A DNA stretch of 64,000 nucleotides from assembly GCF_046105845.1 (NCBI RefSeq), contig NZ_CP151004.1; one strand, given 5' to 3'. The stretch is from Escherichia coli (GTDB lineage: Bacteria > Pseudomonadota > Gammaproteobacteria > Enterobacterales > Enterobacteriaceae). The first letter of the stretch is position 1. Each line of letters opens with the position of its first letter. The notes below the pieces were generated by a model. It saw only the letters and a list, made by a program, of their open reading frames with translations. It was not told the origin of the DNA and searched no databases. The position numbers and the translations under genes are program-made. Below are positions 2,062 to 57,360 of the stretch, piece by piece.

Positions 2062-3660
2062 TTAACGTAACGGCATAATGGGCGTGATATGTCCATTATG
2101 CCGGGCGGGCGGCGGTTGGCTGCCCGCCAGCCATTTGGGAAAATCACGTAGCGGCATCGGCTGTGCGTACAAATACCCTTGCAAAATATGCACGCCATGA
2201 CGGCGCAAATACTTCGCCTGTTCTTGCGTTTCCACGCCCTCCGCCACCAGTTCAATATTCAGTCTTTGCCCCAGCGCGATGATGATATCGGTCACCGTCG
2301 AGTTAACCGCGTCAGAACCTATAGCTGCGGTAAATGACTTATCAATTTTCAGCACGTCAGGACGTAATGTTTCAAGCCAGGAAAACGAACTGTTGCCGGT
2401 GCCGAAGTCATCAATCGCCAGTTTGACGTTTTTACGATGCAGCTCGCGGGCAATCCGATAATCAACATCCAGTAAGGCATCGCGTTCGGTGATTTCGAGG
2501 ATCAGTTGCTGAATCGGGTGAGCGCTAAACCAGTACTGATTGAGATCTTTTATCAGCACACCACGGCGAAAATGACTGGGTGCGACGTTAATGCCAACAT
2601 GAAACTGACTACTCATTGGGAAAACATGCCGCTGACGGATGGTTTCTGCCATCACATAGCGGGTCAGTGGCACAATTAAATGATGTTCTTCCGCGATAGG
2701 AATAAACACATCCGGTGAAATCCAGCCCTGACGTGGATTGTTCCAGCGCAGCAAAATCTCTACACCAATACATTGCTGGCTGCGCGCATTAAGCAAAGGC
2801 TGACAGAACAATTCGAACTCATGTTGCGCCAGGCCCAGATTGATTTCGCGGGAAAAGCTCATTCGGTAAGCGGTCGCCAGCCAGGCGATATAGCCCACCA
2901 GTAAACTTAGCAGCACCGCCAGCGGTAATTGTGTTGGAAGATAGTGCCATGCCAGCGCCGTAGCCCCCGGACCATTAACGTTAATGGTAAAAGGAAAGCG
3001 TTGCGAAGAAACCTGATAGTTTTCATTGTCTTCAGGTTGCGGAAGGGAATCTACCAGCCCATTACCATAGAGCAAATGCCGTTTGTCCACCGTCAGGCTG
3101 GCGCTACTGATTTGCGGCAGTTGTGGCTCAAGGAGCATTGCCGTCAGTAAGTCGATGTTAATCATCTCCATGACCCCAGCATTGCTACTGCCCGCTGCAG
3201 GTGTCCATTGAATCAAAACCGGACTGCCTTTAATCAGGGCATGGTCGGTCGTCAGGCGTAAAAGTGGTTGCGGTGCAGGAAGTTCAGCCAGAATGTCCAC
3301 GACGGGCACATTGCGATAACCAAAAATGCTGGAGCAATAAAGTGTGCCGTCTTGCACCAGGCCAATGGATCGCACAGTTTGGAGTTTTGCCGCCTGTTTA
3401 CGTAATGGCAAATGGGCGACAGAGCAGGGCAGACCAATCAGCGGAAGCAAGACTTCGCTACCTGCCTGTAGGGGAAGCAGTACTTTATCTAATTCCTCTA
3501 CAGCGTGATTGGCGAATTGTACTACCCGTTGTTGATTTAAGTTACGCTGTGAAATAAATCGCACGCTCAGGGTCGAAGCGAGCGTAACGAGTGCGCAAAT
3601 CGTACAAACAATCATTCGATTACGGCGATAGGTTTTAATGATCCGTTGTGCTTTTTGCAT
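2062..3660 (-). CDS. pdeD: CSS-motif-domain c-di-GMP phosphodiesterase (EAL domain)
   Basis: Track ORF 2062..3690; start moved to internal Met (MQKAQRII) giving 532 aa; N-terminal TM plus LYCSSIF (CSS) motif and C-terminal EAL-type domain. Confidence 0.85.
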   Translation of the reverse strand: MQKAQRIIKTYRRNRMIVCTICALVTLASTLSVRFISQRNLNQQRVVQFANHAVEELDKVLLPLQAGSEVLLPLIGLPCSVAHLPLRKQAAKLQTVRSIGLVQDGTLYCSSIFGYRNVPVVDILAELPAPQPLLRLTTDHALIKGSPVLIQWTPAAGSSNAGVMEMINIDLLTAMLLEPQLPQISSASLTVDKRHLLYGNGLVDSLPQPEDNENYQVSSQRFPFTINVNGPGATALAWHYLPTQLPLAVLLSLLVGYIAWLATAYRMSFSREINLGLAQHEFELFCQPLLNARSQQCIGVEILLRWNNPRQGWISPDVFIPIAEEHHLIVPLTRYVMAETIRQRHVFPMSSQFHVGINVAPSHFRRGVLIKDLNQYWFSAHPIQQLILEITERDALLDVDYRIARELHRKNVKLAIDDFGTGNSSFSWLETLRPDVLKIDKSFTAAIGSDAVNSTVTDIIIALGQRLNIELVAEGVETQEQAKYLRRHGVHILQGYLYAQPMPLRDFPKWLAGSQPPPARHNGHITPIMPLR

Positions 3661-3790
3661 GCGGGCCACCCTGTAAGCGTATGGCGACAAACGCCTGACG
3701 CAACAGTGGAAGTGTAGTGGGGAATATTACAGCAGACGAGAAAGCGGGGATAAATTCGCCCATCCGTTGCAGATGGGCGAGTAAGAAGTA

Positions 3791-5155
3791 TTAGTCACAC
3801 TGGACTTTGATTGCCAGACCACCGCGTGAGGTTTCGCGGTATTTGGCGTTCATGTCCTTACCGGTTTCGTACATCGTTTCGATGACCTTATCCAGCGAGA
3901 CGCGCGGTGCACTGGTGCGGCGCAGAGCCATCCGTGCGGCGTTAATCGCCTTCACAGAGGCAATGGCATTACGCTCAATGCACGGCACCTGAACCTGCCC
4001 TGCAACCGGGTCGCAGGTTAAACCAAGGTTGTGTTCCATGCCAATTTCCGCCGCCACGCAAACCTGTTCCGGGCTACCGCCCAGCAGTTCTGCAAGACCC
4101 GCAGCAGCCATTGAACAGGCAACACCCACTTCGCCCTGGCAACCAACTTCCGCACCGGAAATAGAGGCGTTCATTTTATACAATGCACCAATCGCGCCCG
4201 CTGCCATAAAGTAACGGGTATAGATGTCCGGGCTGACCGATTCAATAAAGTGGTCATAGTAAGCCAGCACTGCCGGAACGATACCGCAGGCACCGTTGGT
4301 TGGCGCAGTTACCACACGACCACCGGCGGCGTTTTCTTCGTTAACTGCCAGCGCAAACATGTTTACCCAGTCAATGACATTCATCGGATCGTTAGACAGT
4401 TTATCGCTGGAAACTAACATCCGGCGCAGGGCCGACGCACGACGCGGCACGCGCAGCGGGCCTGGCAGTACGCCTTCGGTATTCATCCCGCGATCGATAC
4501 ATGCCTGCATGGTTTGCCAGACATGAGCGAAATACTCGTCGATCTCTTTCTTGCTGTGTAGCGCCAGTTCGTTCTGCATAGCGAGACCAGAAAGCGAATA
4601 GCCGGTTTCATTACAGTACGCGAGCAGTTCGGTGGCAGATTTGAACGGATACGGCACGCTCACTTCGTTGGCGGCATCCTGACCAAAGTGTTCTTCATCG
4701 ACGATAAAACCGCCGCCGATGGAATAATAAGTTTTGCTGTAGACGACTTCATCGCCGTTATAGGCGTGGATTTGCATACCGTTTTCATGCAGCGGCAGGT
4801 TGCCGTTATGAAAACGCATCCCGTTGTCGCGCGGGAAATCCACTTCATGCCGTCCCTGTGCCAGCAGCAGACGTTCGCGCTCTTCTACGTCGCGAATAAA
4901 ACCGGGAATACTGTCGATATCCACGGTGGCAGGTTCGTTACCTGCAAGACCCATAATAATGGCGATATCGGTGTGGTGGCCTTTACCCGTCAGCGACAGT
5001 GAACCATAAACGTCCACGGCAACGCGAGTAACGCTATCCAGTAAGCCTTTTTCGACCAGATCATCGACGAACTGTTTACCCGCCTTCATAGGCCCTACGG
5101 TATGGGAAGATGAGGGACCAATCCCCACCTTAAACATGTCGAATAGACTAATCAC
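3791..5155 (-). CDS. sdaA: L-serine dehydratase 1 (4Fe-4S)
   Basis: 454-aa ORF beginning [23 protein letters not shown]; full-length match to remembered SdaA. Confidence 0.95.
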
Positions 5156-51619: not shown

Positions 51620-53476
51620 TTAACGCACGTTGGCGCAGGTCAGGCAAAACGCATAACGGTTTTGTGGGTCGTTAAACGCTGCCAGCTTGTCGCTTTCACT
51701 TTTAACGGTAGAGGCTACCGAGGCCAGCGGTGCAGGTAACATGGCCTGGAACGCATCTGGCAACATTGCCCGGACAGAACCAGACATGTTGTCCATCACT
51801 TTGTCGAAGAAGGTCGGTTCATCAACGTAGTATTCCAGATGCCACTGTTTCACTTTTGCCAGCTCTGCTGCTTTGGCGACCGCATCATCGAAATCACCGA
51901 GACTATCGACCAGCCCGTTAGCTTTTGCATCCTGACCGGTCCAGACGTGGCCCTGGGCGATTTTATCAATCTGCTCCGGCGTCGAATGACGCGCATCAGC
52001 AACCAGCGTGATAAAGCGTTTATAGCCATTCTCAATGCTTAACTGCATCATCTGCTGCGCTTCCGGCGGCAGTGCCTTGGTGATAGAAACATCCGCCAAC
52101 GGTGAAGTTGATACACCATCAGTATGAACACCAATCGAATCCAGACTATTTTCTACGGTGGTGATCACGCCGAAGATACCGATAGAACCGGTCAGGGTGC
52201 TGGGGTTAGCCACAATGTAATTAGCTGGTGTGGAAATCCAGTAACCACCAGATGCCGCCATGCCGCCCATCGATACAACCACAGGCTTACCCGCTGCCCG
52301 GGCTGCTGCCAGTTCAGCGCGAATCACTTCAGACGCGGTAACGCTGCCACCTGGGCTATTAACACGCAGAACAATCGCTTTCACTTTCGGGTCAAGGCGA
52401 GCGTCGCGGATTTGTGCCGCAGTGGTATCACCGCCAACATTCCCCTGAGTTTCCTCGCCATCCATAATTGCGCCATTAGCGAAGACGACACCGATACTGT
52501 CACCGGTATCTGCCGGCGTTTTCAATGCGTAATCGTAATAACTGATGGCGCGATAATTTTTATCAGTCTTACTCCAGCCGAACTCTTTGGTCAGAGCTTT
52601 TTCGATTTCCGCACTCGATGCCAGTGCATCGACCAGCTTGTTTTCCAGCGCATATTTCGCGGTATCGCCACCGGTTTTGGTTAAACCCTCAAGCAACCCT
52701 TGCGCGCCAGGGAATACCTGCTGAGCAGGGATCTGCCGGTTAGCGGCAACAGTATTCAGATAGTTTTGCCACAGCTCACCAATCCAGCGGCTGTCAGCTT
52801 CGCGAGCTGCCGGCGACATATCATCACGAATAAACGGTTCAACGGCAGATTTATACGTACCCACGCGGAACACATGGGTGGAAACTTTCAGCTTATCCAG
52901 TAACGATTTGTAGTACAGACCGTTGGTGGCAAAACCGTGCAGATCAACCACGCCTTGCGGAGACAGCCAAATTTTATTGGCGAAACTGGCGAGATAATAT
53001 TGCCCCTGGCTGTAGTTCTCGCCAACGGCATAAACCGGTTTCCCGCTGTCACGAAACTCTTTCAGGGCTTTGCCGATGTATTGCATAGACGGCTGGTCGC
53101 CGCCTGCGAAGTTTTTCAGATCCATCACGATACCGGTGATATTGCGGTCATCCTTCGCCTGGCGAATGGTATTGACGATATCAAACAGTGAGTTTTCCTG
53201 CAGACGATCGGAACTGGCACCAAGCAGTTGGCGGCTTAATTTACTAAACCGCTGAGAACTGTCGGGTTTATCGACGATCACACCAGAAATGTCCAGCAGC
53301 AGTGCGCCACGACTGGCCGTTTCTTTCGAATCACCACCACTGACCTGCATCCAAATCCCCACACCAACCAGTACGAGAAAAATAAAGAACAGGTTAAGTA
53401 CCATTTCACGGACGAAATTCAGCAGACGCCACGTCCATTTAAAAAATCCGGCAATAAATCGCCAAAGGGTTCGCAT
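51620..53476 (-). CDS. sppA: Signal peptide peptidase A (protease IV)
   Basis: Track ORF 51620..53488; start moved to [10 protein letters not shown] giving 618 aa. Confidence 0.9.
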
Positions 53477-53636
53477 GTATTCTCCCAACTTAAGGTCACA
53501 CCTGTTTCAGGCGCAATAGATGTGGTTATCGTAATGACCCAACCGGCACTTGTCAGCAGGAATTGCGGACTGTGCTGTAACAAAATCCACTCTCGTGTTA
53601 ATTTTGTGAATAAATATCATGACAGGAGTTAATCAA

Positions 53637-54188
53637 ATGGATGCACTCGAACTATTGATCAATCGCCGTAGCGCCTCCCGCCTGGCTGAACCTGCGCCAA
53701 CGGGTGAACAACTGCAAAACATCCTGCGTGCGGGTATGCGTGCCCCGGACCATAAATCCATGCAACCGTGGCATTTTTTTGTGATTGAAGGGGAAGGACG
53801 CGAGCGTTTCAGCGCATTATTGGAACAGGGGGCGATTGCTGCCGGTAGTGATGACAAAGCTATCGACAAAGCGCGTAATGCGCCGTTCCGCGCACCGCTC
53901 ATCATAACGGTGGTGGCAAAATGCGAAGAAAATCATAAAGTCCCGCGCTGGGAACAGGAAATGTCTGCGGGATGCGCGGTCATGGCGATGCAAATGGCAG
54001 CAGTTGCCCAGGGGTTTGGCGGCATCTGGCGCAGTGGCGCATTAACTGAAAGTCCGGTAGTGCGTGAAGCATTCGGTTGCCGTGAGCAGGATAAAATTGT
54101 CGGTTTTCTCTACCTTGGTACGCCGCAGTTGAAAGCATCTACGTCGATAAACGTTCCGGACCCGACGCCGTTTGTGACTTATTTCTGA
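53637..54188 (+). CDS. ydjA: Nitroreductase-family protein
   Basis: Track ORF 53619..54188; start moved to [16 protein letters not shown] giving 183 aa. Confidence 0.85.
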
Positions 54189-54304
54189 TAATTGTCGCGA
54201 AACTGTCTGGATTGTGAGCAAAGGCGCAGGAATTCAGACACTCTCACTTATCACTTCACGGAATGAGGGTTACCATACCCGGATTGCATTGACAGGAGAT
54301 GTCC

Positions 54305-55348
54305 ATGAGCGAGAACTCGATTCGTTTGACCCAATACAGCCACGGAGCTGGTTGCGGCTGTAAAATTTCCCCAAAAGTGTTGGAAACCATCCTGCACAGT
54401 GAGCAGGCGAAGTTTGTTGATCCGAATTTGCTTGTGGGTAATGAAACCCGCGACGATGCGGCGGTGTACGATCTGGGCAATGGCACCAGCGTTATCAGTA
54501 CCACCGACTTCTTTATGCCGATCGTTGATAATCCTTTCGATTTTGGCCGCATTGCGGCGACTAACGCCATCAGCGATATCTTCGCGATGGGGGGCAAACC
54601 GATTATGGCGATTGCGATCCTCGGCTGGCCTATTAACAAACTTTCCCCTGAAATTGCCCGCGAAGTAACCGAAGGTGGACGCTATGCATGCCGTCAGGCG
54701 GGTATTGCGCTGGCTGGCGGTCACTCCATCGATGCGCCGGAGCCGATTTTTGGTCTGGCGGTAACGGGGATCGTACCGACCGAGCGAGTGAAGAAAAACA
54801 GTACCGCACAAGCCGGATGTAAACTGTTCCTGACGAAACCGCTGGGGATCGGCGTTCTTACCACGGCTGAGAAAAAATCACTGCTGAAACCAGAACATCA
54901 GGGACTGGCGACGGAAGTGATGTGCCGGATGAACATCGCAGGCGCGTCCTTTGCCAACATCGAAGGCGTAAAAGCGATGACCGACGTTACGGGCTTTGGT
55001 CTGCTGGGGCATTTAAGCGAAATGTGTCAGGGGGCTGGTGTGCAGGCGCGCGTCGACTATGAAGCGATCCCGAAACTGCCGGGGGTTGAAGAGTACATTA
55101 AGTTGGGCGCAGTGCCTGGCGGCACCGAACGTAACTTTGCCAGCTACGGTCATCTGATGGGTGAAATGCCGCGTGAAGTGCGCGATCTGCTGTGCGATCC
55201 GCAAACTTCTGGCGGTCTGCTGCTGGCGGTCATGCCGGAAGCAGAAAATGAGGTCAAAGCTACAGCCGCCGAGTTTGGCATTGAACTGACGGCGATTGGC
55301 GAACTGGTGCCAGCGCGCGGCGGTCGTGCCATGGTTGAGATCCGTTAA
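54305..55348 (+). CDS. selD: Selenide, water dikinase (selenophosphate synthetase)
   Basis: Track ORF 54299..55348; start moved to [24 protein letters not shown] giving 347 aa. Confidence 0.9.
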
Positions 55349-55352
55349 TTCA

Positions 55353-57299
55353 ATGCGGTTGTTTATTGCCGAAAAACCGAGTCTGGCGCGCGCCATTGCT
55401 GATGTCCTGCCCAAACCGCACCGGAAAGGCGATGGCTTTATCGAGTGCGGTAATGGTCAGGTGGTGACCTGGTGTATCGGTCACCTGCTTGAGCAGGCGC
55501 AGCCAGACGCCTACGACAGCCGCTATGCGCGCTGGAATCTTGCGGATTTGCCGATTGTCCCGGAAAAGTGGCAATTACAGCCCCGACCCTCCGTGACTAA
55601 ACAACTTAATGTCATCAAACGCTTCCTGCATGAAGCCAGCGAAATCGTTCACGCCGGTGACCCGGATCGCGAAGGGCAATTACTGGTGGATGAAGTGCTG
55701 GACTATCTGCAACTGGCACCGGAAAAGCGCCAGCAGGTACAGCGTTGTTTGATAAACGACATGAACCCGCAGGCGGTTGAGCGGGCGATCGATCGTCTTC
55801 GTTCCAACAGTGAGTTTGTGCCGTTGTGCGTTTCTGCACTGGCGCGGGCCCGAGCCGACTGGCTGTACGGCATCAATATGACCCGCGCTTACACCATTCT
55901 CGGTCGCAATGCGGGTTATCAGGGCGTGCTTTCCGTGGGACGCGTGCAGACGCCCGTACTCGGACTGGTGGTGCGCCGCGACGAAGAGATTGAAAACTTC
56001 GTGGCGAAAGATTTCTTTGAAGTCAAAGCGCATATCGTGACACCTGCCGATGAGCGGTTTACCGCTATCTGGCAACCGAGCGAAGCGTGTGAACCTTATC
56101 AGGATGAAGAAGGACGCTTGTTACATCGTCCGCTGGCGGAGCATGTGGTTAACCGCATCAGCGGTCAACCGGCTATTGTCACCAGCTATAACGATAAACG
56201 GGAATCAGAATCCGCGCCGCTGCCGTTTTCGCTTTCGGCGTTGCAGATTGAAGCGGCTAAACGCTTTGGTCTGAGCGCGCAGAACGTGCTTGATATCTGC
56301 CAGAAGTTGTACGAAACGCACAAGCTAATCACTTATCCGCGTTCCGATTGTCGCTATCTGCCGGAAGAGCATTTTGCCGGACGCCACGCAGTGATGAATG
56401 CCATCAGCGTTCATACACCGGGCTTGTTACCGCAGCCAGTGGTCGATCCAGATATACGCAACCGCTGCTGGGATGACAAAAAGGTCGATGCGCACCACGC
56501 CATCATCCCGACCGCACGGAGTTCTGCGATCAACCTGACGGAGAACGAAGCGAAGGTCTATAACCTGATTGCCCGTCAGTATTTGATGCAATTCTGCCCG
56601 GATGCGGTGTTCCGCAAGTGTGTTATCGAACTGGACATTGCCAAAGGCAAATTTGTCGCTAAAGCCCGTTTTCTTGCTGAAGCAGGCTGGCGCACGCTGT
56701 TAGGCAGCAAAGAGCGCGATGAAGAAAACGACGGCACGCCGCTGCCTGTGGTGGCGAAAGGCGATGAATTGTTGTGCGAAAAAGGTGAAGTGGTAGAGCG
56801 GCAAACCCAGCCGCCGCGCCATTTTACCGATGCAACACTGCTTTCGGCGATGACCGGGATCGCGCGCTTTGTGCAGGACAAAGATCTGAAAAAGATCCTT
56901 CGTGCGACCGATGGTCTGGGGACAGAAGCAACGCGTGCCGGGATTATTGAACTGTTGTTCAAGCGTGGTTTCCTGACCAAAAAAGGGCGCTATATCCACT
57001 CCACCGACGCCGGAAAAGCGTTATTCCATTCGCTGCCAGAAATGGCTACGCGACCGGATATGACCGCGCACTGGGAATCGGTGCTGACGCAAATCAGCGA
57101 AAAGCAGTGTCGCTACCAGGACTTTATGCAGCCGCTGGTGGGGACGCTTTACCAACTGATTGATCAGGCTCGTAGCACTCCGGTCAGACGGTTTAGAGGA
57201 ATTGTGGCACCAGGTGGGGGGGCTGTTAAAAAAGCACCCAATAAGCGAGTAAAAAAAGCGGCAAAGCCCAAAAAAGATAATACGGATTCTGCTAATTAA
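55353..57299 (+). CDS. topB: DNA topoisomerase III
   Basis: Track ORF 55296..57299; start set to [14 protein letters not shown], 4 nt after the selD stop; lysine-rich C-terminus. Confidence 0.9.
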
Positions 57300-57320
57300 T
57301 TCGTTTTCCACTCTAAAACA

Positions 57321-57360
57321 AAGCCAATGGTAGATATTCCGCCATTGGCTTTATTGGTTA
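57321..57360 (+). terminator. Candidate terminator of topB
   Basis: Perfect 10-bp stem AAGCCAATGG/CCATTGGCTT with 11-nt loop followed by TTATTGGTT, about 20 nt after the topB stop. Confidence 0.5.

Follow-up and report, generated by a model that had tools for sequence, protein, structure and literature searches.

The selD-topB junction of Escherichia coli: an ordinary operon junction that may weakly couple topoisomerase III synthesis to selD translation

Genes and signals at the junction

The DNA analysed here is a 64,000-nt stretch of Escherichia coli (hereafter the window), in which ydjA, selD and topB follow one another on the same strand, with a terminator-like hairpin beyond topB (Table 1). 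Positions 55340-55360 of the + strand read atccgtTAAttcaATGcggttg and hold the selD stop codon, the spacer and the topB start. The first-pass annotation had described selD and topB as being 4 nt apart and topB as having no visible Shine-Dalgarno (SD) sequence, and both descriptions hold: positions 55346-55355 exactly cover stop, spacer and start, and the best pairing of the topB leader with the 3' end of 16S rRNA reaches only -2.7 kcal/mol, from a GAG 13 nt off.

The identities of both products are supported by family profiles. SelD scores 618.6 bits against NF002098 (cut-off 299) and 445.6 bits against TIGR00476 (cut-off 125), while TopB scores 1009.7 bits against TIGR01056 (cut-off 515.75) over residues 1-635, the N-terminus included, and aligns residue 1 on residue 1 with PDB chain 1d6m_A (E = 0). 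The mechanical list of open reading frames begins selD at 54299, two codons earlier than the start adopted here; in the RefSeq annotation of E. coli 042, selD is 1044 nt long and ydjA, at the homologous place, 552 nt.

Table 1. Features of the ydjA-selD-topB locus, in window coordinates
Feature	Position	Strand	Remarks
ydjA (NAD(P)H nitroreductase)	53637-54188	+	116 nt before selD; from the list of open reading frames
selD (selenide, water dikinase), 347 aa	54305-55348	+	upstream cistron
TTG opening the 667-codon open reading frame	55296-55298	+	not the topB start
GAG (selD Glu codon)	55337-55339	+	sole SD-like element, 13 nt before the topB ATG
selD stop codon TAA	55346-55348	+	direct reading
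Spacer TTCA, 4 nt	55349-55352	+	direct reading
topB (DNA topoisomerase III), 648 aa	55353-57299	+	downstream cistron; start ATG 55353-55355
Terminator-like hairpin	57313-57357	+	14 nt past the topB stop; RNA fold

Downstream of topB, the segment 57300-57370 folds with -18.9 kcal/mol into a hairpin with the stem AAAGCCAAUGG...CCAUUGGCUUU. A simple terminator scan overlooked it, owing to its long loop and poor T-run, but as a predicted structure it probably closes the selD-topB unit. An Rfam scan of 53000-58000 by E-value returned no family at the junction; two sub-threshold matches from the same scan sit in a repeat downstream of topB.

Ribosome-binding signals were scored by pairing the 20 nt upstream of each start with the 16S 3' end (ACCUCCUUA). 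By this measure topB ranks 43rd among the 46 genes of the homologous 50-kb region of E. coli 042, where the median is -6.1 and selD reaches -7.4; the K-12 aSD values given by Burkhardt et al. are likewise -2.28 for topB and -7.78 for selD. The GAG inside selD is too distant from the topB ATG to serve as a normal SD. Such a weak signal is common to all 19 relatives in which selD and topB are tightly joined, and the same GAG, which derives from conserved I/V-E-I codons, is present in relatives as well. Photorhabdus and Arsenophonus carry a stronger GAGGT upstream of topB, yet it lies about 14 nt away.

Nor does RNA structure cover the start. The minimum free energy of the 120-nt junction is -36.2 kcal/mol against -40.7 ± 3.4 for shuffled sequences (z +1.35), that is, the junction is less stable than its shuffles, and in the minimum-energy fold the selD stop and the topB AUG both fall in the loop of a 4-bp hairpin. 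The topB start region, with an unpaired probability of 0.52, is more open than in about two-thirds of the 46 genes compared. Two hallmarks of known coupling mechanisms were looked for at this junction. A stable structure over the downstream start, by which coupling through RNA unfolding would be recognised, is not predicted, so that coupling of this type is unlikely and nothing physical stands in the way of de novo initiation. Termination-reinitiation would be marked by an SD inside the upstream cistron, close to its 3' end, and this is all but missing, which predicts a low efficiency of reinitiation but does not exclude it.

Conservation, transcription and output

The locus is close to universal in the species. 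The 3.8-kb ydjA-selD-topB stretch has a match in 5425 of 5426 complete E. coli genomes, with a best identity of 97.9%, which places the window in an Escherichia lineage a little away from the mainstream. The 56-nt junction occurs once and at full length in 5425 of the 5426 and is at least 99% identical in 3353 of them; even in PA45B, the most divergent E. coli strain inspected, where the spacer reads GTCG, its length is still 4 nt. Across 115 nt the window differs from K-12 by one synonymous base, so experimental data obtained in K-12 apply to it. Gene order, 4-nt gap and topB start are all as in K-12 selD-topB (b1764-b1763); the differences lie beyond, in the C-terminal tail of TopB and in what follows topB, namely Hsp70/J-domain genes in the window and ynjI in K-12.

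Across 19 enterobacterial species, the gap measures 2-6 nt in 19 loci from 10 or more genera (among them Escherichia, Citrobacter, Enterobacter, Pseudocitrobacter, Superficieibacter, Mangrovibacter, Photorhabdus, Morganella and Arsenophonus): 4 nt in 11 loci, 3 nt in four, 5 nt in three and 2 nt in one. Seven different spacer 4-mers were seen (ttca, cccc, ttcg, ctcg, gtcg, accg and aaac), and the retention of the length while the letters vary points to a constraint on distance and not on sequence. On the other hand, short gaps are common. Of the 33 neighbouring pairs that share a strand in the corresponding 50 kb of E. coli 042, 11 are separated by at most 4 nt, and two others (ydjX-ydjY and ydjI-ydjH) have a gap of exactly +4; a published genome-wide count puts 707 of 2987 co-directional E. 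coli pairs (24%) at -8 to +6 nt (PMC10666635). Spacing alone therefore carries little information. The selD-topB junction is an ordinary operon junction, already annotated and catalogued, with a gap that is not rarer than chance, and as an arrangement of the textbook type it is in itself of little consequence.

The evidence that the two genes share one mRNA is indirect. RegulonDB-derived tables hold a transcription unit selD-topB with a distance of 4, and a proteomics table assigns selD and topB to one operon id and ydjA to another. The genes share a strand, a gap of 4 nt is too short to accommodate a promoter or a terminator, and our consensus scan detected no terminator-like site at the junction. 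Abundances of K-12 mRNA are 118 for ydjA (about half of selD), 256 for selD and 142 for topB, a pattern consistent with transcription from the 116-nt spacer between ydjA and selD, with read-through to topB and some 3' decay, and with the lack of a strong internal promoter. We infer that selD and topB are co-transcribed in the window's strain as well.

Much less TopB than SelD is made. In K-12, ribosome density is 39.6 for TopB and 265.8 for SelD (ratio 0.15), translation efficiency 0.278 and 1.037 (ratio 0.27), and the number of protein copies per cell 39 and 749 (ratio 0.05); the Gini value of topB in the data of Burkhardt et al. is high (0.516). From the ratio of translation efficiencies it follows that at most about one in four of the ribosomes finishing selD on an mRNA proceeds to make TopB. 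Taken together, the low ratios mean either that any coupling is inefficient or that TopB comes from a weak independent site.

Coupled or independent initiation of topB

Our preferred reading, which we hold to be probable though far from assured, is that TopB synthesis depends measurably on the translation of selD through reinitiation of low efficiency. A single mRNA starting upstream of selD would carry both genes; after release of SelD at the UAA, the ribosome or its 30S subunit would remain on the message with the topB AUG a few nucleotides downstream, and a minority of these ribosomes would restart there, a weak form of coupling by termination-reinitiation. The unstructured, A/U-rich topB start would probably also attract some ribosomes de novo. 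The expected result is a low output of TopB that roughly tracks selD expression, at about one-seventh of the rate of SelD synthesis. We infer that reinitiation, and not independent initiation, is the source of most TopB.

Several observations are in keeping with this reading. The junction has the short stop-to-start distance of coupled pairs (+4 nt, held at 2-6 nt in the 19 loci), and in E. coli reporters coupling is best at -4 to +3 nt, declines beyond this range in a context-dependent manner and is still appreciable for a few nucleotides more. In K-12, topB is one of 137 among 2801 transcripts whose translation is resistant to kasugamycin (KEV > 2), a class enriched in distal operon genes (44% versus 16%) and in gaps of less than 15 nt (28% versus 13%); the authors of that study suggested coupling as the cause. 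For topB, the resistance is a mere correlate of coupling. We found no experiment in the literature searched that stops selD translation and reads out topB; in a Salmonella diarizonae paper, the topB mentioned is a plasmid topB only.

Comparison with characterised systems yields a mixed picture. Like the termination-reinitiation pairs hyfH-hyfI, ydbH-ynbE, menD-menH, trpB-trpA and prfA-prmC, selD and topB are co-directional and separated by a very short stop-start distance. Those pairs, however, mostly overlap (-4 or -1) and usually have a needed SD inside the upstream gene, whereas selD-topB stands at +4 with next to no SD, and its products are not subunits of one complex. The pairs coupled by RNA unfolding, atpH-atpA and rplK-rplA, resemble selD-topB in having a distal gene that follows a short gap on a polycistronic mRNA, but they need an inhibitory structure over the downstream start, and none is predicted at topB.

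The SD is of particular importance in this respect. Its removal lowered reinitiation by 60-100% in four of five E. coli pairs, and since such removal usually cripples the process, the SD-less selD-topB junction should reinitiate poorly. Poor reinitiation agrees with the low output of TopB, yet it does not discriminate between the models: an output of 0.15x in density and 0.05x in copies is equally well explained by weak independent initiation. This leads us to the most serious alternative, which we regard as possible but doubtful, namely that selD and topB are co-transcribed and translationally independent. The topB AUG would then be selected de novo by free 30S subunits, with its unstructured, A/U-rich context (UUAAUUCAAUG) standing in for an SD, and the 4-nt gap would reflect genome compaction. 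Such a model gains from the accessibility of the start region, in a junction less structured than its shuffles, and from a translation efficiency that would suit a poor stand-alone site. It also gains from the wider literature. Saito et al. found coupling unchanged by RRF depletion, in reporters as well as genome-wide, and take this to mean that reinitiation plays no major part in E. coli, data that oppose it as a general explanation; according to Burkhardt et al., overlapping pairs vary in relative translation as much as other pairs do, and translation efficiency follows ORF-wide structure. There is, moreover, a precedent in bioB-bioF, an overlapping E. coli pair without coupling. What weighs against independent initiation is the narrow range of the gap (2-6 nt in different genera, with a freely changing spacer sequence), the bridging ORF retained in Yersinia, with a spacer length of 1 modulo 3 in seven of eight species (see below), and the kasugamycin resistance of TopB translation, which is unlike typical de novo initiation. 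On balance, reinitiation coupled to selD translation is a reasonable and partly supported reading, albeit one that concerns a common operon junction already present in the catalogues.

A different objection, raised in the first-pass annotation as the observation that would overturn coupling, is that topB may have its own promoter. Located inside the selD coding region, it would produce a mainly separate mRNA for which the proximity of stop and start is irrelevant. This we judge very unlikely, as neither the promoter scan nor the level of topB mRNA nor the selD coverage lends it support. The scan detected no promoter-like site on the + strand in 53300-57800, with counts at or below the shuffle expectation; it is a crude consensus-based scan that does not cover non-sigma-70 promoters, and this leaves such a model some room, as does a topB/selD mRNA ratio of 0.55, which is not strictly equimolar. 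Nevertheless, topB mRNA lies below selD mRNA and not above it, read coverage across selD in K-12 is even (Gini 0.265, passing the authors' filter of 0.45 against internal promoters and terminators), and the RegulonDB-derived table lists topB solely as the distal gene of the selD-topB unit and gives it no separate 5'-UTR. Neither topB nor selD is mentioned in the supplements of the tetracycline start-site paper or of SMRT-Cappable-seq.

The same annotation had pointed to a longer topB ORF overlapping selD by 53 nt in a different frame, and mechanically this ORF does exist (TTG 55296..57299, 667 aa, overlap 55296-55348). That topB begins there, or at the GTG or TTG at -27 or -18, so as to encode an N-terminally extended protein with a selD overlap of up to 53 nt, is nonetheless exceedingly improbable: although in Escherichia the frame is open for 21 codons 5' of the ATG and offers TTG and GTG codons, an in-frame stop lies 1-6 codons 5' of the ATG in 12 of the 19 relatives (in species with a 3-nt gap, the selD stop itself), the alignments with the NCBIfam topB profile and with five distinct topoisomerase III chains of the PDB begin at residue 1 of MRLFIAEK, RefSeq places the start at the ATG, with a 4-nt gap, in the E. 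coli 042, PA45B and K-12 records inspected, and the TTG lacks an SD (-1.8 kcal/mol). We thus rejected TTG 55296 as a mechanical artefact, opposed by the family profile, the PDB chains and the in-frame stops of relatives alike, and ATG 55353 is confirmed as the correct start of topB.

A practical aspect concerns the interpretation of selD mutants. Insertions and nonsense mutations in selD may exert a polar effect on topoisomerase III, a point to consider when selD mutant phenotypes are read, for example in transposon screens.

The place of selU and the Yersinia spacer

The mildly novel element of our analysis lies outside the window only: a putative relay ORF derived from selU in Yersinia, and the conserved tethering of topB behind selenium genes. 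In a scan of SelD with one genome per species, which gave 80 loci, topB was found immediately after selD solely in Enterobacteriaceae, Morganellaceae and Yersinia. In Hafnia, Serratia, Budvicia and Edwardsiella, a gene of 370 aa stands between the two, and it encodes the tRNA 2-selenouridine synthase SelU/MnmH (NF008749, 621 bits). In these genera selD and selU overlap by -1 or -4 nt, and selU and topB overlap by -1 nt in five of six loci, the sixth, E. hoshinae, having an 8-nt gap. Photobacterium has selD-selU with topB 148-247 nt further on. More broadly, selU directly follows selD in 46 of the 80 loci, and in Pasteurellaceae, Aeromonas, Pseudomonas and others the scan found no topB within 3.5 kb downstream of selD.

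As in the Proteobacterial selD-selU (mnmH) operon for selenium utilisation, selD leads; in contrast to it, selU is absent from the locus in Escherichia and other Enterobacteriaceae, and topB abuts selD. The ancestral enterobacterial order was probably selD-selU-topB. If the junctions of this ancestral operon overlapped, loss of selU from the locus may have left Enterobacteriaceae with a selD-topB junction of 2-6 nt, and Yersinia may have retained an in-frame remnant of 11-16 codons as a relay ORF.

The evidence from Yersinia is as follows. Judged by its sequence, the 31-52-nt spacer between selD and topB is a relic of selU. In all eight Yersinia species examined, an ORF of 11-16 codons starts at an ATGA or GTGA on the selD stop; it ends at a TGATG or TAATG on the topB start in six of the eight, and falls 3 and 8 nt short of it in the others. 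The ends of these ORFs (...MYSCGE*, ...MYQCGE*) resemble the C-terminus of Serratia SelU (...TYSQNSGE*). Measured to the ATG of MRLF or MQLF, the spacers are 31, 31, 32, 43, 46, 46, 46 and 52 nt long, a length of 1 modulo 3 in seven of the eight. With composition-preserving shuffles, a bridge of this kind arises in 12-21% of the trials for each species, and as the Yersinia species are related to one another, the pattern is suggestive and falls short of statistical proof. A bridging ORF of this kind is what one would expect if translation must be delivered to an SD-poor topB start, which makes it suggestive of coupling.

One could go further and propose that, throughout Enterobacterales, the translation of TopB is obligatorily fed by ribosomes arriving from selenium genes, and that selection has kept this feed in place. 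We offer this as a tentative idea that we would not expect to hold in full. If true, the Yersinia remnant would be a naturally occurring case of a vestigial ORF that survives solely as a translational relay, and the dosage of topoisomerase III would be tied to the expression of genes for selenium utilisation. In any case, selD-selU-topB synteny and the Yersinia mini-ORF offer a cheap natural test of how far distal genes without an SD rely on upstream translation. A further feature of these genomes is a GGTGA motif 5' of topB in Hafnia, Serratia and Yersinia, which we considered as a possible extended match to the anti-SD.

Gene order between selD and topB in related genera

The order selD-selU(mnmH)-topB, in which selU encodes tRNA 2-selenouridine synthase, was found in Hafnia, Serratia, Budvicia, Edwardsiella and Photobacterium. 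Among the Enterobacterales with selU, selD and selU overlap by 1-4 nt, and selU and topB do likewise in five of six loci, the sixth (E. hoshinae) having an 8-nt gap; in Photobacterium, topB is preceded by a gap of 148-247 nt. The topoisomerase III gene is tethered behind selenium-utilisation genes in these genera.

Across the eight Yersinia species examined, the selD-topB spacer measures 31-52 nt (1 mod 3 in seven of them) and contains an ORF of 11-16 codons, which starts upon the selD stop (ATGA/GTGA) and, in 6/8 species, ends upon the topB start (TGATG/TAATG). Because its C-terminal codons are similar to the C-terminus of SelU, this ORF looks like an in-frame selU relic, possibly retained as a translational bridge.

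Features of selD, topB and their flanks (L numbers denote selD loci of related species, each with its own coordinates)
Feature	Location	Strand	Source
ydjA and ydjA-selD spacer	53637-54304		window
Strong hairpin and repeat-like stretch	57313-57545		window, just 3' of topB stop
Hsp70-family gene and overlapping J-domain gene	57744-61375	+	window, 3' of topB
Spacer ORF	L015 4544-4591; L016 4544-4580; L083, L084, L086-L089 around 2544-2600		Yersinia
selD-selU(mnmH)-topB	L017 3501-7596; L019-L021, L023, L025; L028, L029, L032		other genera
selD with in-frame TGA	L030, L034, L035, L037, L038, L040, L042, about 3537-3548		Pasteurellaceae
Apparently disrupted topB	L085 about 2590-4047		Yersinia enterocolitica CP124245

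In Haemophilus, Aggregatibacter, Rodentibacter and Cricetibacter, the selD frame itself carries an in-frame TGA, located about 13-16 codons into a tblastn match that runs on for ~330 codons past it. This TGA agrees with the presence of selenocysteine in SelD of Haemophilus influenzae.

The junction and its upstream flank in E. coli

In the E. coli genome collection, 2/5425 matches to the selD-topB junction fell on records labelled as plasmids, and the search found the junction to be absent altogether from one complete genome. Upstream, published K-12 data give ydjA about half the mRNA of selD (118 vs 256) and a different operon id, which is suggestive of a separate promoter for selD-topB within the 116-nt ydjA-selD spacer; a simple scan detected no consensus promoter in this spacer.

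Variation within and beyond topB

The final ~25 residues of TopB in the window (around 57210-57296) differ from those in K-12 and in the PDB sequence. Downstream, E. coli 042 has the same Hsp70-family and J-domain genes as the window, whereas ynjI (DUF1266) occupies their place in K-12. Given that both the TopB tail and the downstream genes differ from K-12, the variable region seems to start within the topB 3' end. Immediately past the topB stop lies a hairpin of -18.9 kcal/mol, followed by a repeat-like stretch (...cccagtcacttacttatgtaagctcctcgggattcac...) which we take to resemble an ERIC/IRU intergenic repeat. An Rfam search of 53000-58000 gave no match above threshold, the only hits being the sub-threshold AaHKsRNA22 (E = 0.12) and isrH (E = 0.53), both within the repeat-like stretch.

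In Yersinia enterocolitica CP124245, topB is normal over its first ~107 codons, up to ...HAGDPDR, and then gives way to an element that carries a phage-integrase-like gene. A mobile element therefore seems to have interrupted topB in this strain.
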